NCBI GenBank assembly: GCA_963921275.4
Contig: OZ001293.3
Coordinates: 2,720,001-2,784,000 of the forward strand
Source: an uncultured Hormoscilla sp.
GTDB lineage: Bacteria; Cyanobacteriota; Cyanobacteriia; Cyanobacteriales; Desertifilaceae
Reading direction: 5' to 3'
DNA: 64,000 nucleotides
In this document: positions 4,126 through 45,176 of the stretch, one piece after another
Numbering within the stretch: position 1 is the stretch's first letter
Layout of the letters: every line of letters begins with the position of its first letter
Program-made: the position numbers and the translations under genes
The notes under the pieces: generated by a model
Database searches by the model: none
Told to the model about the DNA's origin: nothing
The model's input: only the letters and a program-made list of their open reading frames with translations

Positions 4126-5035
4126 GTCGGGGTCGAGCTAGGAATCGCTCCCCAACCCTCCAAGAGCGAAACCGTGCTTGCGACTTTCACCGCACACGGC
4201 TACTGGTTACCAGGTCCTTGTCATGGATAGGCTTTATAGGGGTTACCCACCGTAGGCCCTTACTGTCTACTTGTTGGCTCCTTCTATGTGCAGGTCAGCG
4301 AGCGGTTGTCAAGGAACCTGTGGTCTCTCGCCTAGTTTATATCGCCGTCCGACGGCAGTCACCCTGTTTCACCTACACCTTCACTCATACCTCCATCAGT
4401 CCCCGAGGGGTCCAAATCGGGCTCATAATATATGTGGAGTTACTAATCTGAACAGCATCCTGGTATATCCGTCCCACGTCAGCGTCCTTGTGGACATCAC
4501 CGGGATTGCTCCGGGCGTTATCCCAGGCATTACCCTGGGCATTTGCTTTTTGGGACATCCCTCCTCCCGTGGCTTGCGCTTAATATCTAACTTGTCTAGC
4601 CGGTCGAGACCAGACAGCACACGAGAGGTTACTTCGTTCCTTGATGTCATTTCACGATATCTTTAGGTCCGTACTATTCCCCGACAGTCTTTCGGATACA
4701 TGACTAGCCACTGCCCAAAGCTAGCCCTGACTGCTTCCCCTTTTGGGGCCAGCGTATATAGCCTTATTCCGCTGGTTTTGGTTAACGAGGTTTTTATACG
4801 TTCGCTTGTTCTAACCTTGGATATCTTTCCTAGCGGAGTCACCGATTTAGGCTACCAGCTATCCTACATTTGAGTCCTCGCTCAGCACCACGGTGATATC
4901 GCTCCGCAGCACCTCCGACCGGTGTCAACCCTGCATCTGGGCGGGAGGAATTTAACCCCCATGAACATCAAAGTTCCCGGTTGATGTAACCGGTCGCTCA
5001 TGACCTGTTGCGGGTCATTTACGAACGAATCGCAC
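4126..5035 (-). mobile_element. ORF-less group II intron (IIB-like), copy A, 910 nt
   Basis: Minus strand starts GTGCGATTCGTT; contains GGAACGAAGTAACC; domain V AGCCGTGTGCGGTGAAAGTCGCAAGCACGGTT; ends CGACCCCGAC; no RT ORF. Confidence 0.9.
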
Positions 5036-5065
5036 GAGCAGTTATCCAATCGCATATCGTAGCGT

Positions 5066-5571
5066 GCAGCCATGGGTGGCGCAGCCATAGAACTTGGCAC
5101 TATCCAGTATAAGTACATAGGCAAAATTATTTTTATATTTTTCCTAGCCGTCAATTTCCGTATCCCTACGGGAGCGCAGCCATGAAGTTAAATCCCTGAA
5201 AGCCTTATGAGATATGGCTTGAGCGCCCACCCTGCCCGTTCGCGCTTTTCCACAAATAGAAAAATCATTTTGCACAACTACTTACTACATTGATTTGATT
5301 ATAGCACGTCCGTATTCAGCAGCCATGGGTGGCGCAGCCATAGAACTTGGCACTATCCAGTATAAGTACATAGGCAAAATTATTTTTATATTTTTCCTAG
5401 CCGTCAATTTCCGTATCCCTACGGGAGCGCAGCCATGAAGTTAAATCCCTGAAAGCCTTATGAGATATGGCTTGAGCGCCCACCCTGCCCGTTCGCGCTT
5501 TTCCACAAATAGAAAAATCATTTTGCACAACTACTTACTACATTGATTTGATTATAGCACGTCCGTATTCA
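5066..5571. repeat. Tandem duplication of a 253-bp unit
   Basis: 5066-5318 repeats as 5319-5571; unit starts in a GCAGCCATG mini-repeat. Confidence 0.9.
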
Positions 5572-6135
5572 GTTGTGTTCATTCCGTAGTGAGTGTGGAG
5601 CCTCGCGGCCAATAAGGTCGGAAGGGTATTTTCCAGATAATGGCTGTCAAACTCACTCTTTGTACCCTACTTTCCCCACGACTGTATTGCGTAAATATTG
5701 CTTGATTGGGGTAGCTTTGCCAACATCTCTCGGGATCTGGATAAATTTTCTACCTTGCTCTTTACCAAAATTCCCATAATTTACGTACTACCAGATATTA
5801 ACAGTGCAGTATTTGGGAGGTTTGGCCTATGACTAGATATGTTACAAAGTGAAGTGTGGAATGTGGATTGGACATATGACCACTTTTTTCATAACTGGTG
5901 CAGGTTTGGGACGCCGTACCCCCCCACAGGATAAGGATTTCAGTCCCCAGACAAGATAACAACTCGCTACTGACGTCTCCAGATGCATTGAGATAGCAAT
6001 TTTGTCAATCGTTTCCACTTGACCGACGCTCTAGGGCATCGGTCAAGTAGAAGCTAGAAACCGGGTCTCGGAGTGCCGCTATTAACGAGATATCAATGAT
6101 CTGACCCTTAGTTACTCGGTATCAGTACCGACGTT

Positions 6136-7125
6136 CTAGGTTTGAGATTCCAGATTTTGAACTGACTCGATTAGCGATCGCACCTGTGCAGTTCCTAAAG
6201 AAGGCTCAAAGGAAAGTGGGAATTTTCCCCGTGCTAGCATCCGTAACCCTAGTGGTCCTAGACCGATCAGCCCTTGCATGTCTCGGAAGTAATTTCCTAC
6301 TACCCGCAGGCCAAACTTGCGCTCATCCACCCAGCCGCCTTTTTTGACCAGGTCTATTAACACCTTCCGATGGCGAATTGGCCGACTGGCTTGGTCGTCT
6401 GTGCGTGAGAGTATTTCACTTTTAATTTTGCCAATTTTATCCATCGGCGCCACACCCATGGGACAGACATTATTGCAGTAATAACAACGAGTGCAACCCC
6501 ACACCCCCTGAGTAGTCTGGGTTAATTTGGACAAGCGCTGTTCGGTGTCGGCGTCTCGATTGTCGGCCACCATCCGGTAAGCTTTAGCTAGGGCGTGGGG
6601 TCCGACAAATTCTGGGTTCACTTCTACTGCATTGCACTCGGAATAGCAGGCTCCGCACATGATACAATTTCCTGTCTGGTCGAGCTGTGCTCTTGCTTGA
6701 GGTGTCTGTAAAAACTCACGCTCTGGCAGATCCCTTGCTTTAGTACTGACATAGGGGTCTAGTTTCTGGAGATTGTCCCAGAAACTACTCATATCCACTA
6801 CCAGATCCTTGATCGCTGGCATATTGCCCATCGGTGCTATGGTAATCTCTGGAATTGAGTCTGCCGAATCGGGAACTGAAGGTGCCAGAAAACTGCCGAC
6901 ATTCTCTTTACAAGCCAGGGCTGTAATACCATTAATACCCATGGCGCAGCTACCACAAATGGTATTGCGGCAATTTTTCCGAAATGCTAGAGTTCCATCT
7001 TGAGTCCACTTAATCTGATTCAGGCAGCTCAAGATAGTCTGACTTGTTTCGGCATCTAGGCGGTAAGTCTGTATCCGCCTATTGCTATTTTGTTCGCTGC
7101 GGACTACCTTAAAATTTATTTCCAT
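6136..7125 (-). CDS. sdhB: Succinate dehydrogenase/fumarate reductase iron-sulfur subunit
   Basis: CRNTICGSC, CIMCGACYSEC and CTRCYYCNNVCP Fe-S motifs; likely start MEINFKV at 7125. Confidence 0.95.
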   Translation of the reverse strand: MEINFKVVRSEQNSNRRIQTYRLDAETSQTILSCLNQIKWTQDGTLAFRKNCRNTICGSCAMGINGITALACKENVGSFLAPSVPDSADSIPEITIAPMGNMPAIKDLVVDMSSFWDNLQKLDPYVSTKARDLPEREFLQTPQARAQLDQTGNCIMCGACYSECNAVEVNPEFVGPHALAKAYRMVADNRDADTEQRLSKLTQTTQGVWGCTRCYYCNNVCPMGVAPMDKIGKIKSEILSRTDDQASRPIRHRKVLIDLVKKGGWVDERKFGLRVVGNYFRDMQGLIGLGPLGLRMLARGKFPLSFEPSLGTAQVRSLIESVQNLESQT

Positions 7126-8281
7126 GTTCGCCAGACTTAGATTGCTGAAAATACCTACTATTCTACCCTTTCGGGCCGACCGCAAGCACCCGGAGCGACT
7201 ATTTGTCCGTCAGGTTGTCCCTTGCGGAAGCTAGTCTAGAGCAGTTCGTCTTGTATTTTTGCTCTCAGACTCAATCACCTGCTATAGGGTATGCTGCTGA
7301 CAACCTCGGGAGCATCTCACTTTGGCAATAAGTACAAATGCTCAGATAAAGTCCCTTTTGAGATCAGCACAACGTTGCCTCAAGACTTGATTAACATTTT
7401 CGGATTTCCTAAGAGCACCCTCAAGCTTGATTCTCTGAGCGATGCGCTTAAGCGTCTCAGAGACGGCTCCTGAACCAATACAGATTTCTGCCAGGAAGGT
7501 ACTGGCAATAATCAGGAAGATGAGAGAAGTCCGGTGTGACTTGAGGTGCTGGTTTAATATGGTCTGGGAGTCTCAAGTGAGATGGCCGCGAAATAAAAAA
7601 ATAAAATATTTGGTCATTTATATCAGAATTAAGGCTATATTTTATATAATACTCAGAGAATACCCATTACCCTAAAAAACAGGGGATGCCAGGTGGTTTC
7701 CATAAATCAGCAAAATAGATGTTGACGCTGAACAGCTTCTCTATGGTATTCTAGAAAATGCAACTTGGAGCATAGTCAATCGCGTTAGTTGGAATCGGTA
7801 GTAACCCAACATCCCCCCTAGGCTAAAACCCAGGTTTGGACTTTTCTGGTGCAACTTGCAGGCTGTGTCTCCCCTTTTGTGCGGGCAGCGCTCCCGGGAG
7901 ACACAGCCTGTGTTGGCTGGCCCAGAAAGTCGGTAAAATGGAGATCCTCGGACGGCTATAGGTAAGGGGTTGATCACCTCAAAATCCAGGCTGTCAGAGG
8001 GATATAGTCGTAGTCAGATCCCAAAGGCTTCGATATCTTCTGGGAGCGCTACCCGCACTACCCAGAAGATATCGAGGAGAAATTTTTCTCAATCAGTCTT
8101 TGTGATGTTAGCTAAAATTGCACAAAGGATACCGGTGTAAGGTGTTGCTAACAGAATTGGGGCCATGGCTAACACCACGAAGGAGCGATAAACCCAGGAT
8201 GTGGGCAAAGTTGTGCTCCAGGGTTGGGCTTGACATCAAGTTGACTTACAATCTAAAGAGAAACGAGGAATTAAGGTATAA

Positions 8282-8758
8282 GTGATGAGTGAAAAAGCAA
8301 AAACAGCCCTGACGGGAAAGGCCCTACTGCAAAAAGTAAAAGAACTCTCAGACAAACCGAGGCGAGAAACAGCAAAGAGCTGTGGATATTACACGACCAC
8401 AAAATCAGGCCAGACCCGTGTGAATTTAACAGATTTTTATGATGCGGTGCTGGCAGCAAAGGGAGTTGCATTAGAGCCGGAAGGCTCAAAAGATGGTCGG
8501 GGCCGAGAGCCAACTTATCGGGTGAGTGTCCACAAAAATGGTCAAATTGTCATTGGCTCGACCTACACCTCGGTGATGGGATTGGAAAAGGGTGATGAGT
8601 TTGAAATTAAGCTGGGCTACAAGCATATTCACCTGATTCAGATAGAAAATCCAGAGAATACAGAGAAAAATGGTAGCCTACCAGCGAGTGAGAACAATGA
8701 TAGCCAACTAGCGGCTGAAAACGAAGAGCCAGAGACTGTGGCAGTAGAAGCGTCATAA
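8282..8758 (+). CDS. Cyanobacterial AbrB-family transcriptional regulator (cyAbrB)
   Basis: LTGKALLQKVKEL...GRGREPTYRVSVHKNGQIVIGSTYT...FEIKLGYKHIHL. Confidence 0.92.
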   Translation: MMSEKAKTALTGKALLQKVKELSDKPRRETAKSCGYYTTTKSGQTRVNLTDFYDAVLAAKGVALEPEGSKDGRGREPTYRVSVHKNGQIVIGSTYTSVMGLEKGDEFEIKLGYKHIHLIQIENPENTEKNGSLPASENNDSQLAAENEEPETVAVEAS

Positions 8759-9161
8759 TTTAAGCATGGCTGATGCCACCAGGCTGGAAACCCGCTCTCC
8801 GGGATCGGCTCTCTGAGCTATTATACTTTGCTCACCTCTATACTTTGCTTATCGGGCGCAAGAGGCTCTACTATAGTGAGCCTAAATCATTTGTGCAACC
8901 CTTCTGGGGGATCAGCGCTGAAACCCTTGCAGAGTAATGATTTCAGCAAACCCCTATAGCACAACTCCTGCACGGCTTGCTATATAGGGCTCAGTAGCTG
9001 GGTTGATTGGGTGGCAAAGTATAGCCTATGCTAGCTGCTGCGCAGCACTTCGTATTCTGCAGTTGGAAGGTCAAAAGCGATCGCCCCGATCTAGACGATC
9101 GGGGCGATCGCTTTTGATTCGCATCGGATATTTCCGGAACGTAAGTAGTAAGCAGTCAGTA

Positions 9162-9345
9162 GGGCGTTGCACATTTTGGGGATGATGGTTGCGACGATAC
9201 CAATTCTCAATTCCCAATTCCCAATTTCAAATTCAAATAAGATCTAAACAGCCAGATATAGATATTTATCACCAGAACAGATGCTGGTCACTCGCCCTGG
9301 TACGTGGTCACTTATCACTTATCATCCCGTCCGAAGTGCAACGCC
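9162..9345. mobile_element. MITE-like element (related copy at 22495-22607)
   Basis: Ends GGCGTTGCACATTTTGGGGATGAT ... ATCATCCCG...GTGCAACGCC are inverted repeats shared by both copies. Confidence 0.65.
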
Positions 9346-9604
9346 GTCAGTAGTAATTAGACGAGATGCTTTCCATTCCCAGAGATAAAGAGTGAACCTG
9401 TAATTTCCGTCAAACGCCGGTGAAAGCAGTCAAGGCCAAGAGGGTCTATGACTGAGGGTGCTGCCCAGTGAGAATAGTACGGATACTGAAGGGGAAAGCT
9501 GGACTGCTTGAGGCGGTCAGGACAACCCCGATCGCCCAGAACCCCCCTGGGGCGATCGCCATCACCAAGACCCCACTAGCAACTAAATGAGAATAGAGTC
9601 ATAG

Positions 9605-9862
9605 TTAAATGAGAAAAATTGAGGTTAGATTACCGCCAGTTCTACCAATAAAAATCTGGTGGGGTGTGGGTAAATGCTCTAGAACTGCCGGCGCTTTGCC
9701 ATAGAGATGGAAACAGAACCAGTGCCGGCACATATCGGCTGATTCTGGTTGCAGCGCTAATCCTGGCAAGACTAACAGGCGGACTTCTGGTTTGGTCATT
9801 AGTCCGGACCGATCGCTAACCGCAAAGCTTTGGGCCCAAATCGGATGGCTGGGCAGTCTCAT
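9605..9862 (-). pseudogene. Remnant of a precorrin-6Y methyltransferase (CbiE/CbiT-type)
   Basis: SDRSGLMTKPEVRLLVL..LALQP, a frameshifted AGTGSVSI motif and PHQIFIG; heavily deleted. Confidence 0.6.
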
Positions 9863-10014
9863 AATTATATAAGATTTTGCTCATAAAAGCTCAAAATCTC
9901 TGATTTTTGGAGGAGATCGGGGGAGAAGGGGGAAAAATCTGTAATGATCGTTAACATAGGAATTAATAAAACATTTAAAAGTTTTACAGAACCCAAACAG
10001 GAGGATGGAACTCG

Positions 10015-12011: not shown

Positions 12012-14433
12012 GTGCGATTCGTTTAGGGTAAAATGACTTGACACGTGTCAAAAAAGGGGACCGCTAGCAGGGTTTCAATAGCCCTGACAACTTACAGATG
12101 ATGGTGGTGAAAGCCCACCCCTCCAGGTGCTCTCGTGACAGCATCCTCCCGACGGTAGCGATGGCATCAATCCGTAAAGCGGGAAGGAAAGGCGCTCTAA
12201 CTGGTAGCCTAAACCGGTCATCGTCGAGCAAGTAGTCATGATGAGCGCAAGCAAAGGTTCATAAGTGTCGTCAACATCAACCAGTGTAATAAGGCTGAGA
12301 CACTGGCCCAAAAGGGAAAGGATAATGGTCATTAGCGGTTGTAATCCGACTAATAAGCACTGACAACAAACCCGGCATATAGAATCCATCTAAAACTACG
12401 ATTAATCATCTGTAGGAACGAAGTAACCCAGCTAGGCACTCTCCATCACCGGTCGATAGATGGAGTAGTCACCAAAGACGCAACATCTGCTCTCATTTGG
12501 CAGGTCATAGCTGGGAAAGATTGAGTGGAGAAGCAAACGCCTATCTGTAATGGATGGGATAAGCTGACGCCCTCACGGTTTTGTCAATTGTGAAGTTGTG
12601 AGTAGTAGTTAATATGTCACGGAACTTAGCCGAAAAGCAAGAGTATGAATGGAAGGAGGTGCCCTGGCAGGAGCTGGAGCGCCGATCGCGCTAGCGTGGC
12701 GCCAGCCATGTCTTCAAGCTACAAAAGCGAATTTACAGAGCGGCACAGGAAGGCAACAAGCGGAAAGTTCGCAAGCTCCAAGGGTTACTAAATAGGTCAT
12801 GGTCCACGAAGATGATAGCGGTGAGACAGGTAACACAACAAAACCAAGGAAAGAATGCGGCTGGTGTGGATGGTGTGAAAGCACTGACTATGGAGCAGCG
12901 ACTGGAACTGGTAAGTCAGCTCAGAGTATCCAGGAAGGCAAAGGCGAAACCTACACTGCGTGTATGGATACCTAAGCCAGGAAGGGACGAAAAGCGGCCA
13001 CTAGGAAGACCGACGATGCACGACCGCGCACTTCAGGGATTGGTCGTCAAACAGTCGCTTGAGCCCGAATGGGAAGCGTACATGGAAGCCAATTCCTACG
13101 GATTCAGACCAGGAAGGGGATGCCACGATGCGATCGAAACGATATTCACCAGCACCAACAAGAAACCAAAATGGGTGTTAGATGCGGATATTGCGAAATG
13201 TTTCGACAAAATTGACCACTCAGCGCTCCTAGAGAAATTGAATACAACATCACCAATCCGTAGACAGATACGGGCATGGCTAAAAGCCGGGGTGATGGAC
13301 CAGGGAATATGGCAGGACACAGAAGCCGGAACTCCTCAAGGCGGAGTAATATCACCATTGCTAGCCAATATAGCCCTACATGGGTTGGAAAAGGTAGTGA
13401 TGAGTCTTGCCCGCACAAAGAGAGAGGAAAAGAAACTAACGATAGTCAGGTACGCCGATGATTTTGTGGTAATGCACGATGACCGGTCAATGATTGAGCG
13501 AGCACAAGGAGTGATTGAGGAGTGGTTGAAGGGAATAGGACTAGAGCTAAAAGCCGAGAAAACCAGGATATCCCACACACTGGAAGGAGAAAACCCCGGA
13601 TTTGACTTCCTAGGGTTCAATATCCGACAATACAAAGTAGGGAAACACAGAAGCGGCAAACTCAGCAACGGAACCCCCCTAGGATTCAAGACCCTAATCA
13701 AGCCTAGCGATAAATCCATTAGGAATCATAAAGAGCAACTATCACAGATAGTTCGCCGCCATAAATCGGCACCACAGACAGCCTTGATAGTCAAACTAAA
13801 CCCAATGATAAGGGGATGGAGCAACTACTTCAAGACGGTGGTAAGTAAGGAAACTTACAGCGACATGGATAGCTACCTATGGGAGCTGCTGTGGCAATGG
13901 GCAAAGAGAAGGCATCCCAATAAATCGGGCGAATGGATTGCCAAAAATTATTGGGCCATGACCGGTAAGGACCGGTGGAGGTTCATCGGTAAATCCAAGA
14001 AAGGAGAAATAAAGCTAATCCGGCACTCTGAAACTGAAATAATCAGACACACAAAGGTAAAGGGGACAGCTAGCCCGCTTGACGGTAACCTAGTCTACTG
14101 GAGCCAGAGATTACGAAAGAGCCCGGACGTAAGCATGAGAGTGATTAACCTGCTCAAGAGGCAGGATGGCAAGTGCCAGCATTGCGGACTAACGTTTAAG
14201 GACGGCGACAAATGGAAGTGGACCACATCCTGCCAACCTCACTGGGAGGTAAGAACTGGTACTCCAACCTACAGTTGCTGCACGACTACTGCCATGATTA
14301 TAAATCTGCCAGGGATGGCAGCAAAGGCCGTATCCATGACAAGGATGACGAAACTGAGGAGCCGGATGAGGTGAAAGTCTCACGTCCGGTTTTGAAGACG
14401 AGTCGGTACGGTGACGTACTGGCTTAGTTTAAT
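12012..14433 (+). mobile_element. Full-length group II intron with RT/maturase-HNH ORF
   Basis: Starts GTGCGATTCGTT; domain V GAGCCGGATGAGGTGAAAGTCTCACGTCCGGTTTT; ends ...AGTTTAAT 8 nt before the next start codon. Confidence 0.93.
12614..14427 (+). pseudogene. ltrA: Group II intron reverse transcriptase/maturase, disrupted
   Basis: GTPQGG and YADD RT motifs, X domain, CxxC and HNH; in-frame TAG at 12692-12694 inside a 24-bp insert; frameshift near 14213 separates the EVDH...NLQLLH HNH segment. Confidence 0.9.
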
Positions 14434-14441
14434 AGTCTCCG

Positions 14442-16805: not shown

Positions 16806-16808
16806 GCA

Positions 16809-21578: not shown

Positions 21579-21626
21579 CTTAGTATCAGAGTAAAAATTT
21601 AGCTGTTGGTCAACTAGGTTTGTGCA

Positions 21627-22460
<834 letters not shown>

Positions 22461-22684
22461 TGACGGGAGGAATAAGTATCTCAGAAGATAAATTGGCGTT
22501 GCACATTTTGGGGATGATGCCCTTTTTTGCACATAACTGAAACTGGCTTGTAGTCTAGGTTTAAGACTTCTGCAACTATGCCCATCATCCCGTAATTGTG
22601 CAACGCAGATAAATTTATCGCGCTGGGGATCAGACAGGTCCCGATTTTTCCTTCAGCGGTGTCAAATCATCACAGAGGTATTTC

Positions 22685-30425: not shown

Positions 30426-30557
30426 ATATATCCCAAATCTCATCCCCCCCACCCTCAAGGGTGGGGCTACAGATACAAAGCCCGCCTGCGCGGGCTTTAT
30501 TCTCGTTACCAGGCTCAGCCTGGTAACGTAGGTTTAGAGGCTCCCGCCTCTAGTATG

Positions 30558-31471
30558 GTCGGGGTCGAGCTGGGAATCACTTCCCAACCCTCCCTTTCGG
30601 AACCTGAAGAGCGACTTTCACCGCACACGGCTACTGGTTGGTAAGCTCTTGTCATCAGCAGGATTACTAGGGGTTACCCCCGTTGTTCCTTGCCCCATGA
30701 GATTTTGCCCCTTTGTGGTTAGCCAACAGACCGTTTTAGTACCTAGCTCCGGAAGGTTCGCGGAGGAGAACCAGCAAACCGCACTAGCCGCTCTTTGCTA
30801 ACATGGTCCCCATTTACTTTTTTACTCGGGGTTCTGAGTTTTTACCCGGCTAGGATTTTAGTCCATCATTCATCCTTTAAGATTGCTCCTTAGTCTATGA
30901 CTTTTTAAGGCTAGTTTCTCCCAAGGCTTCTTACCATATCCGTCCTACGTCTGCATATCCACAGGCATTACCCTGGGCGTTGGCTTCTTAGGACATCCCT
31001 CCCACCCACACTTGCTTGCGCTTTACATCTAACTTGTCCCTGGGGACAGCGACGTGGGGGTTACTTCGTTCCTTGATGCCATTTCGCGAGGCTTTTAGGT
31101 CTCCCCTATATACCGGCAGTTCTTTCGGATACGTCCTTAGCCACATATGAAAGCTAAGGCGCTGCCTGCTTTCCTATTTTAGGCCGGTGTTAGTCAGCCA
31201 TTACACCGGTTAGTATTAACGATACTTACAGGGATTTGCCTGCTCTAACCATGAACCTCTAATAAGCGCGGAGTTGCCAGTTTGGCTACTAGCTATCCTA
31301 CATTTGAGTCCTCGCTTGGCACCACGATGATGTTACTTCGCAGCACTGAGAACCGATGTCAGCCCCGTATCTGGGCGGAGGGAATTTAACCCTCATGGCA
31401 CCAAAGTTACCTGGCAAATAAGACCAGGTCCGATTTTCACCATTACTGGTTTACATCAGAACGAATCGCAC
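30558..31471 (-). mobile_element. ORF-less group II intron, copy C, 914 nt
   Basis: Minus strand GTGCGATTCGTT start; domain V AGCCGTGTGCGGTGAAAGTCGC; ends CGACCCCGAC. Confidence 0.9.
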
Positions 31472-31479
31472 CAATTGAC

Positions 31480-32692: not shown

Positions 32693-32872
32693 GGCTCTGC
32701 CAGGGAACGAGGGGAATGGACATGAATAAAGAATCAACAATTTTAACTGCTCAATTCTCAATTTTAACTGCTCAATTCTCAATAGCTTTACTGGGAAGTA
32801 ATGGGAATAGAGATTGTCCCCTGCCCTGGTTTCGATGTCTTCGGGATGCAACCCAGGCAACCCCTCAGACAT

Positions 32873-34431
32873 ATTAAACTAAGCCAGAGAGTCACCTCTC
32901 CGAGGAGTCTTCAGAACCGGACGATCTGCTTTTCACCTCAGGAGGCTCCTCAGTAACGTCACCCTTGTCATGGGTACGGCTACTACCATCGCTGGTAGTC
33001 TTCGTGTCGTGGCAGTGTTTGTGCAACAGTTGCAGGTTGTCCCACCTGTCTTTACCACCTAATGAAAGTGGCTTGATGTGGTCAACTTCCCACCTGTCGC
33101 TATTCTTAAACGTTAGTTTGCAATGTTGACATTTCCCCTTTTGTCTTTTGAGCAGCTTTGCTACTCTGTTGCCTATCTCTGGGTTCCTACCTAGTCTCGT
33201 GCTCCAATAGGTGAGGTTCCCGTCGTATGGGCTGGCTTTTCCTTTTACTTTCACATGTCTTACTATCTCTACACTTGCGTGTCGATATAGTTCTACATTC
33301 CCTTCTTTTGTTCGGCACCGGAATCGCCATTGTGCGTCTTGGTCTACTGACCAATATTTATTGGCTATCCAATGTCTTGATTTGTTAGGGTGTCTTCTCT
33401 TTGCCCAATTCCACAGGATTTTCCATAGGTAATTGTCCATTTCTGAGTAAACCTCTTTGCTTACCGCAGTCCTGTAGTAGTTGGCCCATCCTCGTATTAT
33501 CGGGTTGAGTTTGCTTATCAAGGCAGCTTGTGGAGCTGCTTTATGATTGCTTATTACTTCTGCCAACCTTTCTTTGTGCTTACCTATGGATTTATTACTG
33601 GGTTTGATAAGGGTTTTGAATCCTAGCGGTTTCCCGTGTCCGTTCTTGCCCGTGTAATATTTTCCTACCTCATATTGCCTTACATTGAACCCTAGGAAGT
33701 CAAACCCCGGGTTTTCGCCGTGTAGCGTATGAGTTATTTTTGTCTTTTCAGGCTTGAGTTCTAGTCCAATCCCTTTTAGCCACTCTGCTATAACCTCCTG
33801 CGCTTCTTCTATCTTTTCTCTTTTGTCATGCATCACCACAAAGTCATCAGCATATCTGACTACCGCCAGCTTTTGTTTTTCTCTTTGTGTTTCTGCTAGT
33901 TTCATTACCACTTCTTCTAGCCCATGTAGGGCTACATTCGCTAGTAATGGTGATATGACTTCCCGTTTTCGTTGAACAGGTCATTGGTAAAAATTTTCCG
34001 GGTTGCCAGCGAGCGATTTCGGTTAAAATATTGATAAATATGAATCGGTAATTTCGACAATTTGTGGGTTGGTTATATTGCACAAATTTTAGAAGTATTA
34101 GAATCTGTTGATAGCTCTGAAAAACTTGAGATTAACCAGTACCACCTTTGGAGCTCTTTATTAACAGGAAATCTATCAAACCCAGATTCTGTCGTTTGAG
34201 TAACATATGTGAGCATGGGAGGTAGAGCTTAAAACCCAGAGCTGACAAGGGTTTTATTTTTGGAGATGTCTAATTGATGCCATCGCTACCGTAGGGAGTA
34301 TGCTGTCACTCCTGCACCTGGAGGGGTGGACTTTCACCACCATCATCTATAAGTTATCATGGCTAATGAAACCCTGTTAGCTGTCCTATAATTTGACTTG
34401 TATCATGTCAATCAATCTTAACGAATCACAC
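32873..34431 (-). mobile_element. Internally deleted group II intron related to 12012-14433
   Basis: 5' end GTGTGATTCGTT (34431) matches the first ~160 nt of the 12012 intron down to 34272; unrelated DNA follows, then the 3' half of the IEP and DV/DVI ending AGTTTAAT at 32873. Confidence 0.85.
32892..33958 (-). pseudogene. 5'-truncated group II intron RT/maturase with intact HNH domain
   Basis: Begins at ISPLLANVALHGLE; YADD; CQHC; WEVDHIKPLSLGG...NLQLLHKHCH. Confidence 0.9.
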
Positions 34432-36863: not shown

Positions 36864-36883
36864 CAAAAAATTTTCATTTAATT

Positions 36884-37372: not shown

Positions 37373-37537
37373 GCAATAAATTATCATTTAATTGCAGTAG
37401 GTAGGCACCGCCCATCTTACAGCTTGTGGCTTAGCTGGCTATCGGCAGCCTTTGGCATGGAATAGCGCTGGCAGCGGTCCCGCTCAAATATTTTCCGAAA
37501 TACTTGCTAAATAATTTCAATAGGAGTAGATTAGATA

Positions 37538-37600
37538 TTGTGTTCTCCTCGAAAGGACAGAGAGAAATAAAGAATTCCTCTCTGTCCTATCTTTTCTTTT
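37538..37600 (+). ncRNA. IsaR1-like sRNA candidate 3 (short form)
   Basis: TTGCTAAATAATTTCAATA box, then GTGTTCTCCTC and terminator AGGACAGAGAG/CTCTCTGTCCT plus T-rich tail. Confidence 0.65.
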
Positions 37601-37637
37601 CTGAGAGGGTAAGATAGGCCGCACACCTTACCTGGTA

Positions 37638-38511: not shown

Positions 38512-38637
38512 CCCCTATCATCCCCTAATTCTGTAACCAACTAACAACTAACAACCGACCACTGACAAGTGACAACTGACAAATGACAATGGGCAGTTTT
38601 ATCAGTTTTGTGTTATCTTGGGGAGCGGTTTGGCTTA

Positions 38638-38656
38638 TTTGATAATATATCTCAAA
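38638..38656 (+). promoter_or_regulatory. Putative Fur box upstream of futC
   Basis: TTTGATAATATATCTCAAA, imperfect inverted repeat 12 nt before the ATG. Confidence 0.55.
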
Positions 38657-38668
38657 AGTATTGCCCAG

Positions 38669-39730
38669 ATGGAAAACCCCGTTATTGTCCAGATAGAGGG
38701 TGTGACCAGACAGTTTGACAAAAGTACGCTGCCAGCGGTGGATGAGGTGACATTGAGCCTACAGCGATCGGACATCCTGGGGTTGTTAGGACCATCAGGC
38801 TGTGGCAAAACCACGCTGTTACGGTTAGTAGCAGGTTTTGAGCAGCCCCAGGCAGGGTATGTGGCCCTAGCAGGAAAACCGGTAGCAGGAGGGGGCTATT
38901 GGGTGCCTCCAGAAAAGCGCGACGTCGGTATCGTCTTTCAAGATTATGCCCTGTTTCCCCATCTGACGGTGGCCCAGAATATTGCCTTTGGCTTGCAACA
39001 AGGTAGGTTAAAAAAGTCCTCTTCAGTGCAAACACGTGTCAATGAAGTGCTGGCCCTAGTAGGACTGGAAGGACTGCAAAAGCGCTATCCCCACCAACTA
39101 TCCGGGGGACAGCAGCAACGGGTGGCCCTGGCCCGGGCTTTAGCCCCGGCACCAGCATTAATTTTGTTGGACGAACCGCTGAGTAATTTAGACGTGCAAG
39201 TGCGTCTGAGACTGCGAGAGGAAATTCGCAAGATTCTCAAAACCAGCGGTACCACTGGCATTTTTGTGACTCACGATCGGGAAGAAGCAATGGCGATCGC
39301 GGACTGGGTAGGAGTGATGCGGCAAGGAAGGTTAGAACAGTTGGGAACGCCAGAAGAAGTATACCAGCAACCAGGGACGCGGTTTGTAGCAGAGTTTGTC
39401 ACTCAAGCCAATTTTATCCCAGCTCACCGCAGAGGTCAACTGTGGGAAACGGAAGTAGGTAGCTTCGAGGTAAAAACTGTAAGGGAAGCAGATTTTGATA
39501 TTGGCGATCTGATGATCCGACAAGAAGATTTAATCCTGAAACCAGATGAAGAAGGAAAAGTGGCGATCGCGGATCGACAATTTCTGGGTCGGGAATACCA
39601 TTATAGTTTAGTGACCGCATCTGGCAGAGAGCTAAAAGCACGGGCCACAGGGTCTTCCCCGCTGCCAGTAGGAACAAAAGTACAGCTAGCTATTGCCAAA
39701 GGAACCCTGGAAGTATTCCCCGGTTTGTAG
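38669..39730 (+). CDS. futC: Fe(III) ABC transporter ATP-binding protein
   Basis: GPSGCGKT, VFQDYALFPHL, LSGGQQQRVALAR, TOBE C-terminus; adjacent to the permease. Confidence 0.88.
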   Translation: MENPVIVQIEGVTRQFDKSTLPAVDEVTLSLQRSDILGLLGPSGCGKTTLLRLVAGFEQPQAGYVALAGKPVAGGGYWVPPEKRDVGIVFQDYALFPHLTVAQNIAFGLQQGRLKKSSSVQTRVNEVLALVGLEGLQKRYPHQLSGGQQQRVALARALAPAPALILLDEPLSNLDVQVRLRLREEIRKILKTSGTTGIFVTHDREEAMAIADWVGVMRQGRLEQLGTPEEVYQQPGTRFVAEFVTQANFIPAHRRGQLWETEVGSFEVKTVREADFDIGDLMIRQEDLILKPDEEGKVAIADRQFLGREYHYSLVTASGRELKARATGSSPLPVGTKVQLAIAKGTLEVFPGL

Positions 39731-39852
39731 TAAGCGATTTAGCTCTTCCGGGGTTTGTAGTAAGCGCTAAAGCGCTTGCGTTCTCCGCGCTAAAAAACGA
39801 TCGCCAAAAGTTTTTTAACCCCTTACTAACAACTAAAAAATCACAAAACTAA

Positions 39853-41547
39853 ATGCCAAACCACAAAAATATGAGAATCAATTACCAATTAGCAAATTCT
39901 CCATTAATGTTGCAGCGTCTAGTGCCGGGCGGATGGATAGCTGTAACGATCGCGCTCGCGCTTTTAGTCTCGACTCCAGTTTTGTTTGTGCTAGGAAACA
40001 TCTTCGCGGACAATAGCGAGGTGTGGAACCATCTGGCGGAGACAGTCTTACCGCGCTACATGGCCAACTCATTGTGGTTGATGTTAGGCGTAGGATCGGG
40101 CGTGTTACTGATAGGAGTGGGCACAGCCTGGTTAGTAACCATGTGCAGTTTTTGGGGAAGTAAGATATTTGAATGGGCGCTACTATTGCCTCTAGCTACA
40201 CCTGCCTATCTGCTAGCCTACAGTTACACTGAATTATTAGAATTTTACGGTCCCGTGCAGATGACCCTGCGGGACTGGTTTGGTTGGAGTAGCGTCGGGG
40301 ACTACTGGTTTCCCAACGTGCGATCGCTTGGTGGGGCCATTATGCTGTTAACCCTGGTACTCTATCCCTACGTTTACCTGTTAGCGCGAGTCGCCTTTTT
40401 GGAACAATGTACCTGCACTTTAGAAGCGAGTCGCAGTCTGGGTTGCGGTCCCTGGCACAGTTTCGCCACCGTGGCCCTCCCCCTAGCACGACCCGCCATT
40501 ATGGCCGGGTTATCCCTAGCATTAATGGAAACCCTGAGTGACTTTGGCACGGTACAGTTTTTTGGCGTAGACACCTTCACCACAGGCATCTATCGCACCT
40601 GGTTTGGCATGGGAGAACGAGTCGCAGCCGCTCAATTAGCAGCTTTTCTGTTATTATTTATCTTTGGGCTAATTTTACTAGAGCGTTGGTCCCGTCGTCA
40701 AGCCAAATATTATCAAAGTGGTAGTGACTACAGTCCCATGCAACCCTATCAACTCAAAGGAATTCGTGCCACTTTGGCAAGTATAGCCTGTTTGCTGCCC
40801 CTGAGTCTAGGTTTTCTGTTGCCAGCTGGTCTATTGCTGCAAATGACTTGGGAAAATGCTGAAACAATAAACGATCGCTTTTGGGGTTTAGCGACCAACA
40901 GTTTTATCCTAGCAGTGATTACAGCTATATTAGCAGTGATCGTTGCTGTGGTCATCGCTTATGGAGTGCGGTTGCAATCCCATATTGCCATGGAACTAGC
41001 AGCCAGGGTTACGGCAATGGGCTATGCTATTCCTGGTTCAGTGATTGCAGTCGGCATTCTCATTCCGGTGGGCAGACTTGATAATGCGATCGATGGTTGG
41101 ATGCGTGGTACCTTTTGCATCTCGACCGGTTTGCTACTGAGTGGGACGATCGCGGCCTTAATCTTCGCCTATCTAGTCCGTTTCCTAGCAGTTTCCTTCG
41201 GCACAGTAGAGTCCAGTTTAGGCAAAATCAAGCCCAACCTCGATGATGCGGCCCGCAGTCTCGGTCACAGTCCCACTAGCACTTTACTGCGAGTCCATGC
41301 ACCGATGATGGGGGGCGGTTTACTGACAGCAGCAATGCTAGTATTTGTAGACGTAATGAAGGAATTGCCAGCAACCCTGATTATCCGACCTTTTAACTTT
41401 GACACTTTAGCAATTCGGGTGTATAATCTAGCTTCTGACGAGCGTTTAGCTGAAGCAGCAGCACCCGCATTGGCGATCGTTCTCGTGGGGATTATACCCG
41501 TAATTTTCTTGAGTTGGCAAATCGCTGTCCGATCGCGAAGCGACTAG
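39853..41547 (+). CDS. futB: Fe(III) ABC transporter permease
   Basis: Two EAA loops (EASRSLG, DDAARSLG); LMETLSDFGTV; FVDVMKELPATLIIRPFNFDTLA. Confidence 0.92.
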   Translation: MPNHKNMRINYQLANSPLMLQRLVPGGWIAVTIALALLVSTPVLFVLGNIFADNSEVWNHLAETVLPRYMANSLWLMLGVGSGVLLIGVGTAWLVTMCSFWGSKIFEWALLLPLATPAYLLAYSYTELLEFYGPVQMTLRDWFGWSSVGDYWFPNVRSLGGAIMLLTLVLYPYVYLLARVAFLEQCTCTLEASRSLGCGPWHSFATVALPLARPAIMAGLSLALMETLSDFGTVQFFGVDTFTTGIYRTWFGMGERVAAAQLAAFLLLFIFGLILLERWSRRQAKYYQSGSDYSPMQPYQLKGIRATLASIACLLPLSLGFLLPAGLLLQMTWENAETINDRFWGLATNSFILAVITAILAVIVAVVIAYGVRLQSHIAMELAARVTAMGYAIPGSVIAVGILIPVGRLDNAIDGWMRGTFCISTGLLLSGTIAALIFAYLVRFLAVSFGTVESSLGKIKPNLDDAARSLGHSPTSTLLRVHAPMMGGGLLTAAMLVFVDVMKELPATLIIRPFNFDTLAIRVYNLASDERLAEAAAPALAIVLVGIIPVIFLSWQIAVRSRSD

Positions 41548-41581
41548 AACCCTCATTCACTTCGCTGTCAGCCCGCCTTCG

Positions 41582-41989
41582 GTGTCTCGTGGGAGCTCCC
41601 CCTGGATCGTTTGTTGGGACTATGGAGTTAGAACCGGGGTCAAAAAATCTCGCATCCCAGACCTGACCATGATCACAGAAGCGCAAGAGGACAGGTTGAT
41701 TGAGTCTGATTCCGAAGCAGTACTCGAAGAAGCACCCATCTTAGCTATTGAGATTGTCTCCCCCAACGCTCGCATCACAGACTATCGCTACAAACGTTCT
41801 GAATATGCCGCCAAAGGTATCCCGGAATATTGGATTGTGGATGCCTCTAAGAACAGAATTACTATCTTGACGCTGGTGGATGGTTTCTATGAAGAAGCCA
41901 TTTTTGAGGGAAATGACCGCATTATCTCTGGAACCTTCCCCGACCTGGACTTGACCGCTGAACAGGTGTCGATCGCTAAAAAGTTGTAG
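41582..41989 (+). pseudogene. Uma2/DUF820 endonuclease, 5'-truncated fragment
   Basis: SRIPDL...PILAIEIVSP...KRSEYAAKGIPEYWIVD; N-terminal part missing. Confidence 0.7.
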
Positions 41990-42138
41990 GTTGGGTTGAG
42001 GCACGGATGCTGTTGGCGAATTGGGAGAAAGCCAAATTTATCGTTGATGCTGTCTACCGTAGAAAAGGGGTTTCAGAGAATTAAACTGATTTCGCCAACA
42101 GCATCAGGCACGAAACCCAACCAAGAGATGTTGTTTTT

Positions 42139-42282
42139 ACTCGTTCCCAGGTTCTACCTGGGAACGTACATCAGAGGCTCGGCCTCGCGGGTGGGAGCCG
42201 CTATACTGGTAATCATGTCATAGCTGCGAGACTGGAGGCGTCCCCTCCCAATAGTCGTTCCCAGCCAGAGACTGCCAACGAG
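42139..42282. mobile_element. Palindromic MITE (CTCGTTCCCAGG...CTGGGAACGAG family); related copies at 44104-44247, 48540-48640, 30503-30550 and 53650-53763
   Basis: Terminal hairpins plus internal GAGGCTCTGCCTC palindromes. Confidence 0.75.
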
Positions 42283-42285
42283 GTA

Positions 42286-43211
42286 GTGCGATTCGTTCCG
42301 GCATAAGCCAGTAGGTGAAAGTCGGGTCTGGCTCTATCAGCCAGATAACTCTGGTTATCATGGGGGTTAAATTCCCTTTCCCCAGGTACGGGGGTCGAGG
42401 GTACTACCGGTCGGAGGTGCTACGGAGCCACATCGCCGTGGTGCCTCCCGAGGACTTAAATGTAGGATAACTGGCAGCCTAAGCCGGTGACGCCGCTAGG
42501 AAAGATGCTAATGGTTAGAACAAGCGAACCTATGTAAACCTCGTTAACCAGAACCAGCGGAAGAAGGCTTATGCGCTTGCCCAAAAAGGGAAATGGTAGT
42601 TAGTATTAGCTCTTGCCTCTGGCTAATAACGTACTCAAAGAACTCCCGGGGTATAGTAGGAACCTAAAAGCATCGTGAAATGATACTAGGGAACGAAGTA
42701 ACCTCTCGTGAGCTGTCCCCATTTGGACAAGTTAGATGTAAAGCGCAAGCCACGAAGAAGAAGGATGTCCTAAGAAGCTAACGCCCAGGGTAATGCCTGT
42801 GGATATGCAGACGTAGGACGGATATGGTAAGACACCCTTGGGAAAAGTAACCTTAATGTCACAGAACTAGGGAGAAATTCCGAAAGTACGAATTTTGGAT
42901 TCAAATCTTAGCCAGGTAAAGTTCAGAGCCCTTACGAAAAGCGGAAAGCAGAATGGGGAAGATGTTAGTAAAGAGCGGCGAGTATGGTTTGCTGAACTAT
43001 CCTCCGCGAACCTTCCGCAGCTCAGTACTTAAACGGTCCAATAGGATTGACCATAAGGGGTAAAATTTCAAAGGGTAAGGGACAACGGGGGTAACCCCCA
43101 GTAATCCTACTGATGACAACAGCTTACCAACCAGTAGCCGTGTGCGGTTCCAGTCGCTCTTCAGGTTTCGCTCTTGGAGGGTTGGGGAGTGATTCCCAGC
43201 TCGACCCCGAC
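42286..43211 (+). mobile_element. ORF-less group II intron, copy D, 926 nt
   Basis: GTGCGATTCGTT ... AGCCGTGTGCGG(TTCCA)GTCGC ... CGACCCCGAC. Confidence 0.9.
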
Positions 43212-43275
43212 CATACTATACGGGTTTCTGGCGATCGCTCAAATTTTAATCTATTTCCTCCGGGTTGACTCCCAT

Positions 43276-44028
43276 TTATAGTAACCGCTGGGCTAATTTT
43301 TCCGCACGTTGGCGTTCGGAAAGGACCTGTTGTTCCAGTGTTTTGATTTGGCCTTGTTCTGCTTTTATTAATTGCTCCACTAGCGGAGGAGCGAGCAGTT
43401 CTTTCACCGATAAAACTAACTGCTCAAACTGACCAGAAACAATTGACATCTCTTCGGTGAAATCTACAAAACTATATCCTTCTTCATTACGAGGATTAGC
43501 AAACACCCGCACCCGTTTCTTTTTTGGGTCTACTACCCAATATTCGGGAATTTCTGCGATTTCGTATTCAGAACGTTTAATCACATAATCATCCCGGGCA
43601 TTACTACTGACAACTTCCACTACCAAAATCGGCTTTTCAGCAAAATCCAAAACTCCAGCACCAGGACGATGAATAACTTGTTCCCAAACTGTTTGGCTAC
43701 AGACTACCACATCGGGAATTCGCAATGAATTTTCTTCCGTTCGGACACCTGTCCCTAAAGAGTTCGCGACTAAATCTAAGTTTTGGTCAGCAAAGTAGCG
43801 CTGGAACTTATAAATCAGAAACTTGCAAATATTGGTATGTAAGTGCGTTGGTGCTGACATGGGTATTAGTTGCCCCCTGAATAATTCATAGAGAACGTCC
43901 GGTTCTCCTTCATATTCAAGATATTCTTGGAAGGTTAACAGATGTTCAATGCTTTGATGTTCAATTTCAGGAGGTTCACCCCGTGCCTGCCCAACCTCCT
44001 CTACCGCTGAAACGACTGCTTGAGTCAT
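43276..44028 (-). CDS. Uma2/DUF820 family endonuclease (stop 9 codons earlier than its paralog)
   Basis: RIPDVVV...PILVVEVVSSN..DDYVIKRSEYEIAEIPEYWVVDP; TAA where the paralog has GAA. Confidence 0.88.
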   Translation of the reverse strand: MTQAVVSAVEEVGQARGEPPEIEHQSIEHLLTFQEYLEYEGEPDVLYELFRGQLIPMSAPTHLHTNICKFLIYKFQRYFADQNLDLVANSLGTGVRTEENSLRIPDVVVCSQTVWEQVIHRPGAGVLDFAEKPILVVEVVSSNARDDYVIKRSEYEIAEIPEYWVVDPKKKRVRVFANPRNEEGYSFVDFTEEMSIVSGQFEQLVLSVKELLAPPLVEQLIKAEQGQIKTLEQQVLSERQRAEKLAQRLL

Positions 44029-44250
44029 AATGCTAGACCTCTGGTGCGATCGCGTTCTTTGAATATTTTATCTCATCTCAACTTTCTGTGCTAGTTGATT
44101 TTACTCATTCCCAGGTTCTACCTGGGAACGCACATCCTTCGAGGCTCTGCCTCCCGGGTGTGAGCCGCTATACTGGTAATCATGTCCAGCCAGAGACTGG
44201 AGGCTCCGCCTCTCAATATGCGTTCCCAGCCAGAGACTGGGAAGGAGGTA

Positions 44251-45176
44251 GTGCGATTCGTTCCGGCATAAGCCAGTAGGTGAAAGTCGGGTCTGGCTCT
44301 ATCAGCCAGATAACTCTGGTTATCATGGGGGTTAAATTCCCTTTCCCCAGGTACGGGGGTCGAGGGTACTACCGGTCGGAGGTGCTACGGAGCCACATCG
44401 CCGTGGTGCCTCCCGAGGACTTAAATGTAGGATAACTGGCAGCCTAAGCCGGTGACGCCGCTAGGAAAGATGCTAATGGTTAGAACAAGCGAACCTATGT
44501 AAACCTCGTTAACCAGAACCAGCGGAAGAAGGCTTATGCGCTTGCCCAAAAAGGGAAATGGTAGTTAGTATTAGCTCTTGCCTCTGGCTAATAACGTACT
44601 CAAAGAACTCCCGGGGTATAGTAGGAACCTAAAAGCATCGTGAAATGATACTAGGGAACGAAGTAACCTCTCGTGAGCTGTCCCCATTTGGACAAGTTAG
44701 ATGTAAAGCGCAAGCCACGAAGAAGAAGGATGTCCTAAGAAGCTAACGCCCAGGGTAATGCCTGTGGATATGCAGACGTAGGACGGATATGGTAAGACAC
44801 CCTTGGGAAAAGTAACCTTAATGTCACAGAACTAGGGAGAAATTCCGAAAGTACGAATTTTGGATTCAAATCTTAGCCAGGTAAAGTTCAGAGCCCTTAC
44901 GAAAAGCGGAAAGCAGAATGGGGAAGATGTTAGTAAAGAGCGGCGAGTATGGTTTGCTGAACTATCCTCCGCGAACCTTCCGCAGCTCAGTACTTAAACG
45001 GTCCAATAGGATTGACCATAAGCGGTAAAATTTCAAAGGGTAAGGGACAACGGGGGTAACCCCCAGTAATCCTACTGATGACAACAGCTTAACAACCAGT
45101 AGCCGTGTGCGGTTCCAGTCGCTCTTCAGGTTTCGCTCTTGGAGGGTTGGGGAGTGATTCCCAGCTCGACCCCGAC
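44251..45176 (+). mobile_element. ORF-less group II intron, copy E, 926 nt (near-identical to copy D)
   Basis: Same boundaries; only two substitutions versus copy D noticed by eye. Confidence 0.9.

Follow-up and report, generated by a model that had tools for sequence, protein, structure and literature searches.

Hundreds of retargeted ORF-less group II introns in the genome of an uncultured Hormoscilla

In a 64,000-nucleotide stretch of the genome of an uncultured cyanobacterium, Hormoscilla sp. (GenBank assembly GCA_963921275.4, contig OZ001293.3, positions 2,720,001 to 2,784,000 of the forward strand; this whole stretch is called the window below), there are five related elements without an open reading frame (ORF) for a reverse transcriptase (RT). 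They are very likely non-autonomous group II introns of the IIB type, from a lineage that has been retargeted through its exon-binding sites (EBSs) and that spreads by means of an intron-encoded protein (IEP) supplied in trans. In the mechanism proposed here, each intron would recognise its site by three pairings: EBS1 with positions -1 to -6 relative to the insertion, EBS2 with about -9 to -13, and EBS3 with +1. Through changes in these loops, a single ORF-less RNA lineage would have diversified into about 47 families, which among them have about 45 target specificities. Copies would spread by reverse splicing into DNA and then reverse transcription, and the RT/maturase/HNH protein would be supplied in trans by the IEP-bearing introns of the same genome.

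Five ORF-less introns in the window

The five introns are as follows (positions are those of the window).

4125-5035, minus strand: copy A, ORF-less group II intron, 911 nt, from a family of 5 copies
21627-22461, plus strand: copy B, ORF-less group II intron, 835 nt, from a family of 71 copies at 53 distinct sites
30557-31471, minus strand: copy C, ORF-less group II intron, 915 nt, sole member of its own family
42286-43212, plus strand: copy D, ORF-less group II intron, 927 nt, from a family of 16 copies at 13 distinct sites
44251-45177, plus strand: copy E, ORF-less group II intron of copy D's family, in the second unit of a tandem duplication of ~2 kb

The first-pass annotation of the window had located these elements and described them as related and lacking an RT ORF, all of which stands; its 3' coordinates fall one nucleotide short of the true ends. 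In a full-length alignment of the five copies the mean column identity is 79%, and copies D and E differ at 2 positions in 927 nt. All of them open with GTGCGATTCGTTC, the first 13 nt being invariant, and the GUGCG start that had been read earlier is present as GTGCG in 5/5 copies, in agreement with the GUGYG of group II intron 5' ends. A 3' block, ...AGCTCGACCCCGAC, is likewise common to the five. The longest open frame within any of them is 136 aa, and no RT remnant was found in the ORF-less families at E<=1e-3 by tblastn with two intact IEPs as queries.

Only two of the five reach the gathering score of the Rfam family for domains V/VI, RF00029: copy A (45 bits, match at 4138-4204) and copy B (47 bits). 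The same family matches more than 100 other copies genome-wide. In the Rfam alignment of copy B, the AGC triad and a GAAA loop can be seen, as can the bulged A of domain VI. Copies C, D and E stay below the gathering score, and for copy D there is no Rfam match whatsoever at E<=1. The lower helix of domain V covaries between families, with AGCCGGA...TCCGGTT, AGCCGTG...CACGGTT and AGCCGGG...CCCGGTT as its versions. None of the Rfam group-II-D1D4 families reaches the gathering score in the window (the best is RF01999 with 12.8 bits and E 7.5), and an RNAalifold consensus of 51 family representatives, made on a rough alignment, is poor outside a few helices.

A ~2 kb tandem duplication, with flanks that are 93.5% identical, contains copies D and E, and for copy A a paralogous copy with identical flanks exists in the genome. 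The five copies therefore do not represent five independent events. None of them (0/5) interrupts a sense open frame. Directly downstream of D and E, respectively, are paralogous ORFs of ~250 aa at 43276-44028 and 45207-45968, both on the minus strand. In the congeneric genomes G004 and G002 (see below), the first has one intron-free version of the ~2 kb repeat unit and the second has none.

Pairing of intron loops with insertion sites

Because no curated covariance model aligns domain I, the loops that pair with the target were looked for by a covariation scan that is blind to structure. The set consisted of 326 aligned genome copies of 700-1150 nt with both end motifs present, representing 265 distinct sites; here and in the permutation test it includes one non-intron, and 7 elements that afterwards turned out to be 5' parts of IEP-bearing introns. 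All flank positions between -16 and +4 were compared with each of 813 well-occupied columns for a family-weighted excess of Watson-Crick and G-U pairs. The top 13 pairs form three groups. The first joins -1 to -6 with alignment columns D-329 to D-334 in antiparallel order, and these columns are the loop that had been proposed as EBS1. This identification had been set beforehand as one of two points on which the proposal could fail, and the blind scan picks the loop as the partner of -1 to -6. The second group joins -9 to -14 with columns D-260 to D-266 (EBS2), and the third joins the base after the corrected 3' end (+1) with column D-369 (EBS3). The next signal is between the intron's own last base and D-478, with a weak excess (0.94 vs 0.73).

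EBS1 is the loop T(C/T)T-NNNNNN-TG of a hairpin with a covarying stem. Of 45 family representatives folded singly, 35 have all six EBS1 nucleotides unpaired in the loop of a hairpin with a closing stem of 4 bp or more. For EBS2 the context is CGTTA-NNNNN-AACCAGCG, and the pentamer in it pairs with about -9 to -13. EBS1, EBS2 and EBS3 pairings are those of subgroup IIB type target recognition.

Complementarity between loop and flank, the second of these points, had been claimed from the window alone, and over all copies it goes far beyond chance. For 264 family-site pairs, EBS1 matches 5.17 of 6 positions compared with 2.67 when partners are shuffled between families (z about 39), EBS2 3.80 of 5 compared with 2.26 (z about 26), and EBS3 0.91 compared with 0.69 (z about 11). 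When each of the 49 families is represented by a single copy, 4.98/6, 4.12/5 and 0.88 are obtained, and 5000 permutations at the family level gave 2.63, 2.16 and 0.47. The maxima over these permutations were 3.18, 2.73 and 0.67, so that the observed values were never reached.

In the window, the pairing elements (EBSs and the intron-binding sites, IBSs) are at the following positions.

Copy A: EBS1 GGGCAG at 4711-4716, EBS2 ACCAA at 4778-4782, EBS3 T at 4676; IBS1 at 5036-5041, IBS3 at 4124
Copy B: EBS1 TGCACT at 21948-21953, EBS2 TCTAG at 21881-21885, EBS3 T at 21988; IBS1 at 21621-21626, IBS2 at 21614-21618, IBS3 G at 22462
Copy C: EBS1 CATATG at 31144-31149, EBS2 ATACT at 31212-31216, EBS3 T at 31108; IBS1 at 31472-31477
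Copy D: EBS1 TGCCTC at 42614-42619, EBS2 ACCAG at 42547-42551, EBS3 T at 42654
Copy E: EBS1 at 44579-44584, EBS2 at 44512-44516, EBS3 at 44619

The EBS1 pairs listed earlier for these copies were reproduced exactly: GGGCAG with CTGCTC in copy A (6/6 with one G-U), TGCACT with TGTGCA in copy B (5/6), CATATG with CAATTG in copy C (4/6), and TGCCTC with GAGGTA in copies D and E (6/6 with one G-U). For EBS2, copies B and C pair at 5/5 positions (one G-U each). Copy A pairs at 3/5 in the fixed register and copy E at 3/5; both reach 4/5 when shifted by 1, as read by hand. Copy D pairs at 1/5 in the fixed register, where the IBS2 of the site is degenerate. EBS3 pairs in copies A, C (1/1), D and E, and forms a U-G wobble in copy B.

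Intron ends and empty sites

For an empty-site test, both flanks of each copy were joined and searched against the same genome. With the intron end moved by +1 nt, an exact 30-mer empty site was found elsewhere in the genome for 62 of the 326 elements, compared with 0/326 at the earlier 3' end and 0/326 at +2. One element has an exact empty site only when its 5' start is shifted 1 nt upstream, and 263 have none. A gapped BLAST variant of the test gave 137 junction-spanning paralogues. The extra terminal base is constant within each family, as seen in the largest family (C at 108/108 sites) and in the family of copy B (T at 53/53). Because of these empty sites and the constancy of the extra base, the intron terminus is placed at ...GACY (GACC or GACU). 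Column D-369 pairs with the true +1 base in 240 of the 264 family-site pairs.

Copy number and families in the genome

Profile searches of the genome with nhmmer gave 484 matches for the 5' end, 413 for the 3' end and 513 for the domain I core. Among the 5'-end matches, 476 begin at the model start; a 3' partner could be assigned to 366, and the resulting element is 700-1150 nt long in 328. By context, the 476 5' ends divide into 334 that are ORF-less, 68 followed by an IEP, 46 unpaired, and 28 long or nested. Automatic pairing of 5' and 3' ends misjoined some nested introns (e.g. 6623488-6625992), and these were settled by hand. Seven elements counted as ORF-less (clusters 13, 15, 31 and 49) had to be dropped, since tblastn matches show them to be 5' parts of IEP-bearing introns, and cluster 37 was dropped from the ORF-less counts as a non-intron. 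Once these artefacts are removed, 318 ORF-less copies remain in the motif set. At a threshold of 94% identity they group into 47 families, with 41 distinct EBS1 sequences, 43 distinct EBS2 sequences and 45 distinct combinations. The description of the window elements as a radiating, non-autonomous and retargeted group fits these numbers. The density of about one copy per 13 kb noted for the window is a local figure; genome-wide there is about one ORF-less copy per 21 kb. In total, intron-derived DNA makes up 583,592 of 7,034,909 bp, or 8.3% of the genome. No replication-strand bias of the introns is visible in 500-kb bins.

The largest family has 137 copies at 108 sites with a mean identity of 99.75%, and the family of copy B, the second of the two biggest, has a mean identity of 99.67%. 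In the target logos of these two families, conservation is seen only at IBS2, IBS1 and IBS3, in addition to A-richness at -15/-14. Both families look like recent bursts.

Some families have introns as their targets. Three small families (8 copies in total) have the EBS1 GGGAAT and the EBS2 AACCC, and their site is a conserved intron sequence, ...TTAAATTCCC|TCTCCCC. These families are twintrons, since their site ...GGGTTAAATTCCC|TCTCCCC is itself intron sequence. Copies of the B family and of family-0 are also found inside IEP-bearing introns and IEP ORFs, and the same sites are empty in intact paralogues. Some nested ORF-less copies are antisense to the host intron, e.g. at C1:361089-362628, and such copies are therefore not removable from the host transcript. 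About ten loci of ~1738 nt on C1 (e.g. 824938-826675) are head-to-tail tandem pairs of the largest ORF-less family, joined as ...CCCCATCC|GTGCG. These pairs would fit re-insertion at an unchanged IBS1/2, with the U of EBS3 forming a wobble with the G that is the first intron base. A tandem re-insertion of this type has been described for an Escherichia coli IIB1 intron, according to the available passages of PMC12584367.

Introns within genes

Open frames of at least 150 aa cross the junction in sense at 92 of the 265 sites and in antisense at 50. Counting either strand, such frames are found at 49% of intron sites vs 62% of 2000 random positions. Sense frames of 250 aa or more that extend for 50 aa or more to either side of the intron are found at 40 sites, 38 of which lie outside IEP loci. 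The exon halves of 10 such sites were sent to Pfam separately, and at 6 of the 10 the domain architecture is consistent or contiguous across the intron:

Glutamate synthase, split by an intron of the B family: GATase_2 in exon 1, Glu_syn_central and Glu_synthase in exon 2
A2M_BRD: profile positions 1-81 in exon 1, 84-140 in exon 2
Mrr_cat and ResIII in exon 1, Helicase_C and ISP coupler in exon 2
DUF6851: positions 1-107 in exon 1, 113-140 together with VCPO in exon 2
Ribonucleotide reductase, with pairings of EBS1 6/6, EBS2 5/5 and EBS3 1/1: RNR_Alpha in exon 1, RNR-II insertion domain in exon 2
Pentapeptide repeats in exon 1 and in exon 2

At the remaining four sites, RecJ domains are found in exon 2 only (one site) or there is a match in exon 1 only (three sites). 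The glutamate synthase (C1:5580677), ribonucleotide reductase (C1:848632) and RecJ (C1:5887450) genes are each interrupted in frame by an ORF-less intron. It is worth adding that exon 2 of the intron-split ribonucleotide reductase gene (C1:849548-851044) has a match to an intein splicing domain of 27.7 bits, which is below the curated cut-off of 35.8. With its intron and this intein-like match, the gene resembles the Trichodesmium gene with inteins and introns.

Related genomes

The genome is of a sponge-symbiont type, and its nearest relatives are other Hormoscilla sp., with 95% protein identity and about 96% DNA identity, in records that come from sponge and sediment samples. At the site orthologous to that of copy B, 4/4 Hormoscilla sp. 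records lack the intron: the flanks align up to the insertion point, and 63-84 nt are found in place of ~1.1 kb that includes the 835-nt intron. Copies C, D and E have no counterpart at the matching loci of the congeners G002 or G004, and neither has the segment 32865-35355, which holds an IEP-bearing remnant. The flanks of copy A matched only short dispersed repeats in the congeners. The congeners used for empty sites have 95-98% nucleotide identity.

In the congeners, where 40 candidates were scored per genome, relatives of copy B are only 68-84% identical. G028, a genome of the same order and a different genus (3.8 Mb, 1 contig), has nothing similar to copy B at E<=1e-30, and a search of 60 further genomes from this order was negative at E<=1e-20. 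RF00029 has at least 104-106 matches among 106 candidates scored in 3 of the 4 congeneric genomes and in G028 (106 of 106 in the latter), and 0-19 matches in 25 other relatives; 106-150 candidates were scored per genome, and these figures are lower bounds. G028 looks like another intron-rich cyanobacterium with a different intron family.

In two metatranscriptome sets, contigs of relatives (90-95% similar) pass the site of copy B without the intron. They have 51 other letters between the flanks, and splicing was rejected as a reading of these contigs in favour of an empty site in a relative. High metatranscriptome word depth on conserved parts of the introns is equally well explained by copy number.

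Three further observations concern the repeats and contigs of these genomes. Dispersed repeats of ~50 nt lie in the intergenic flanks at about 30446-30496 and 42140-42186, have many matches in each of the four congeners, and are another abundant small-repeat family of the genus. In the genome studied here, contig C4 (10,136 bp) is almost entirely a 64-nt tandem repeat with about 156 units. Contig C3 (31,420 bp) has a G+C content of 17.6% vs 47.4% for the chromosome, and may be foreign to the cyanobacterium.

Intron-encoded proteins

Two IEP-bearing introns are found in the window.

12012-14434, plus strand: IEP-bearing intron from the sister RNA clade; its IEP gene, at 12812-14374, is broken; 3' end approximate
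32872-34431, minus strand: remnant of an IEP-bearing intron, with an IEP fragment at 32892-33911

The first has an nhmmer 5'-end match at 12012 and an RF00029 match at 14357-14433, and it shares only 125 nt of similarity with the ORF-less families. The second has an nhmmer 5'-end match at 34431, and BLAST matches cover 32872-33960 and 34273-34431. Both IEP genes had been called broken, and Pfam agrees: in the protein encoded at 12812-14374, RVT_N is missing its first 46 positions and there is no HNH domain, and the one at 32892-33911 lacks the N-terminal RT.

In the whole genome tblastn gives 93 IEP loci, and in 15 of them the longest ORF is at least 588 aa. Of these 15 proteins, 14 are 72-89% identical to the window IEP and one is 41% identical. 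Two long ORFs (592 and 598 aa) carry RVT_N, RVT_1, GIIM and HNH according to Pfam. Among solved structures, their best relative is 6ME0 chain C (E 3.9e-114), the reverse transcriptase of the Thermosynechococcus intron ribonucleoprotein. Two unusual loci were also seen. At C1:1775405-1777189 there is a single divergent IEP of 595 aa, 41% identical to the main family, with YADG for YADD and a weak HNH match. At C1:5172167-5173291, between two ORF-less introns, there is an IEP-like ORF of 374 aa that comprises RVT_N, RVT_1 as far as position 139 of 205, and half of GIIM. Its YADD block is deleted, and what is left is either a pseudogene or a relic with maturase function alone.

A tree of the first 330 nt separates IEP-bearing and ORF-less introns into two deeply split clades, with few exceptions that were traced to nesting. 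The first-pass annotation had assigned the two IEP genes of the window to a different RNA subfamily, and genome-wide this holds for 46/46 IEP-bearing introns that could be cleanly placed (of 68 flagged). No ORF-bearing member of the ORF-less clade, with an IEP inside that RNA scaffold, was found in this genome.

Activity of the introns and source of the protein

Several observations weigh against an active lineage that is served in trans by these IEPs. In the pairing data, copy C matches its flank at only 4 of 6 EBS1 positions. In copies C, D and E, domain V keeps the AGC and has two predicted mispairs, caused by the variant ...GCTCTTCAGG that recurs in their families, and in D and E the domain V loop is non-GNRA, with UUCCA (TTCCA) replacing GAAA; copies with such mispairs (the families of C, D and E) may be poor ribozymes. 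The terminus lies 1 base past the AC that Rfam aligns to the consensus AY, and thus departs from the canonical 3' AY. Part of the copy number is due to hitch-hiking in other repeats, given 326 copies at 265 sites. All 46 cleanly placed IEP-bearing introns have only 51-126 nt within their first 600 nt that BLAST can align to the ORF-less families. No shared IEP-binding element was found in domain IV, with a profile that was contaminated by nested 5' ends and matched domain II/III only. Finally, no exact intron-skipping joint across 21627-22461 was found in four metatranscriptome contig sets (searched with the window segment 20500-24400).

Some of these points would also be expected if the copies were dead relics, neither spliced nor mobile, that had been multiplied by segmental duplication, by recombination or as passengers. 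The domain V mispairs of some families agree with this, as do the 61 of 326 copies that share a site group with another copy, the position of D/E and A in duplicated segments, and the nested copies that are antisense to their host intron. However, the 108 and 53 sites of the two big families share only the IBS motifs, identity within these families is about 99.7%, and sites are empty in congeners of 95-98% nucleotide identity. In addition, frames span the insertions in the glutamate synthase and ribonucleotide reductase genes, which an unspliced insert would break. Dead relics are thus a very unlikely explanation, and we infer that the ORF-less introns splice and that they are still mobile.

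The identity of the protein that serves these introns is a separate matter. That it is the abundant IEP family is an assumption, because the RNA scaffolds are far apart and no shared domain IV element was found. It is conceivable, but improbable, that a dedicated or divergent protein does this instead, possibly with splicing and mobility carried out by different proteins. The same strong divergence of the scaffolds and the same lack of a detected domain IV element (with the contaminated profile) would then be expected, and divergent RT-like loci do exist in the genome, the candidates being the 595-aa YADG protein and the RT-deleted 374-aa ORF. However, the 374-aa ORF, without the YADD block and half of the maturase domain, cannot make complementary DNA and may be a pseudogene. 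The 595-aa IEP is a single copy inside its own intron and has an altered RT motif. An active RT is required for bursts with 99.7% identity, and its obvious source is the main IEP family with its 14 long-ORF copies (two of them checked with Pfam).

The earlier annotation had allowed for a maturase borrowed from elsewhere or for protein-free action. Borrowing can be kept, given the long-ORF IEPs elsewhere in the genome. In the protein-free case the introns would splice themselves, reverse-splice and be copied by an unrelated host polymerase, which would agree with an ORF-less clade that has no ORF-bearing member in this genome and no ORF remnants. Yet integration of group II introns into DNA needs target-primed or primer-dependent reverse transcription by an RT, no precedent was found in the literature examined, and such a mode is not needed because 15 IEP loci keep long ORFs. 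We regard it as highly implausible. Spread in trans by IEPs of the same genome is retained as the likely explanation for the ORF-less lineage, with the main IEP family as the presumed provider.

Implications

Most bacteria have just a few group II introns, and it has long been asked how introns could attain eukaryote-like numbers. Until now the best model among bacteria had 28 copies, whose spread was attributed to heat; the genome studied here has more than 10 times as many. It offers dozens of natural retargetings, bursts of more than 100 near-identical copies, and insertions that are specific to a lineage, and its core metabolic and replication genes hold introns that encode no splicing protein of their own. 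In our judgement it is evenly balanced whether the Hormoscilla lineage carries the densest bacterial load of group II introns yet described (about 480 copies, 8%), driven by an ORF-less clade that resembles short interspersed nuclear elements, has no autonomous member of its own and has about 45 specificities, with jumps that continue today, differ from one congener to the next and reach essential genes as well. If this were true, viability of the cell would depend on a shared splicing apparatus that acts in trans, and the lineage would be a present-day bacterial model for the stage of intron invasion that has been proposed for early eukaryotes, in an organism whose record titles suggest no hot habitat.

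Several questions become testable with this material: the origin of a common splicing apparatus, the reach of an IEP over diverged RNAs, and target rules derived from 265 natural sites. For gene-targeting work, the introns are a ready set of retargeted ribozymes that are compact, at about 830-930 nt. It should be kept in mind that censuses based on Rfam under-count such introns, as they overlook three of the five in the window (C, D and E).

Comparison with known systems

The mechanism itself, i.e. non-autonomous introns that are mobilised in trans and retargeted through their EBSs, is already known from Thermosynechococcus and Trichodesmium. What is new is the scale, how deep the radiation of ORF-less introns goes, the displaced 3' end and the presence of introns in core genes. 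No paper that combines Hormoscilla with group II introns, and none with an intron count per genome above 101, was found in searches of freely accessible articles. The published Hormoscilla genome papers examined contain no occurrence of 'intron' or 'reverse transcriptase'.

The closest case is T. elongatus, where the TeI3/TeI4 introns are present in 28 copies with 6 EBS families, 17 of them ORF-less, and make up about 1.3% of the genome, and where trans-mobilisation and EBS divergence of ORF-less introns have been described (available passages of Mohr, Ghanem and Lambowitz 2010, PMC2882425, here and in the following). As in Hormoscilla, these are cyanobacterial introns with EBS1/2/3, ORF-less copies outnumber ORF-bearing ones and are taken as trans-mobilised, families are defined by diverged EBSs, and many insertions are intergenic. 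Homing into other introns and into the RT ORF (twintrons) is found in both, and the IEP of T. elongatus is the closest solved relative (6ME0) of the IEPs described here. The scale is different, with 28 copies, 6 families and about 1.3% there compared with about 476 5' ends, 47 ORF-less families and 8.3% here. In T. elongatus the ORF-less introns are 85-100% identical to ORF-bearing ones and ORF remnants are visible (PMC2882425), the ORF-less copies being derived from an ORF-bearing intron of the same genome; in Hormoscilla such a derivation is not seen, as the two kinds form separate RNA clades and no remnants were detected. T. elongatus is also a thermophile, and heat was proposed to aid the spread (PMC2882425), whereas the relatives here come from sponge and sediment records. 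The 3' end ...ACY is unlike that of the T. elongatus system.

The original sources for the ORF-less introns of Trichodesmium erythraeum are reportedly Meng et al. 2005 and Liu et al. 2003. In this species, ORF-less introns in dnaN and in a ribonucleotide reductase gene are spliced with a trans-acting maturase (as cited in the available passages of PMC4649490 and PMC12584367), and 17 spliced introns, ten of them ORF-less, are given in those of PMC4649490. Like the genome described here, it belongs to a filamentous cyanobacterium, has ORF-less introns in housekeeping genes, including ribonucleotide reductase beside an intein, and encodes the IEP elsewhere. There the number is 17 and splicing was demonstrated, whereas here there are hundreds of introns, mostly intergenic, whose splicing is inferred.

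Another filamentous cyanobacterium, Arthrospira platensis, has 101 introns, the highest number in a survey of 1,790 representative bacterial genomes (available passages of Miura et al. 2022, PMC8919778), and resembles Hormoscilla in combining chloroplast-like (CL-type) and ORF-less group II introns at a very high copy number. The ratio between the two genomes is rough, since 101 was obtained by a pipeline based on Rfam, and the 366 paired ends and 476 5' ends here by a family-specific profile. Finally, engineered targetrons are retargeted by way of EBS1, EBS2 and a third pairing position, the same elements that vary between the families described here. The difference is that in Hormoscilla the reprogramming is natural, and is seen about 45 times in one genome.

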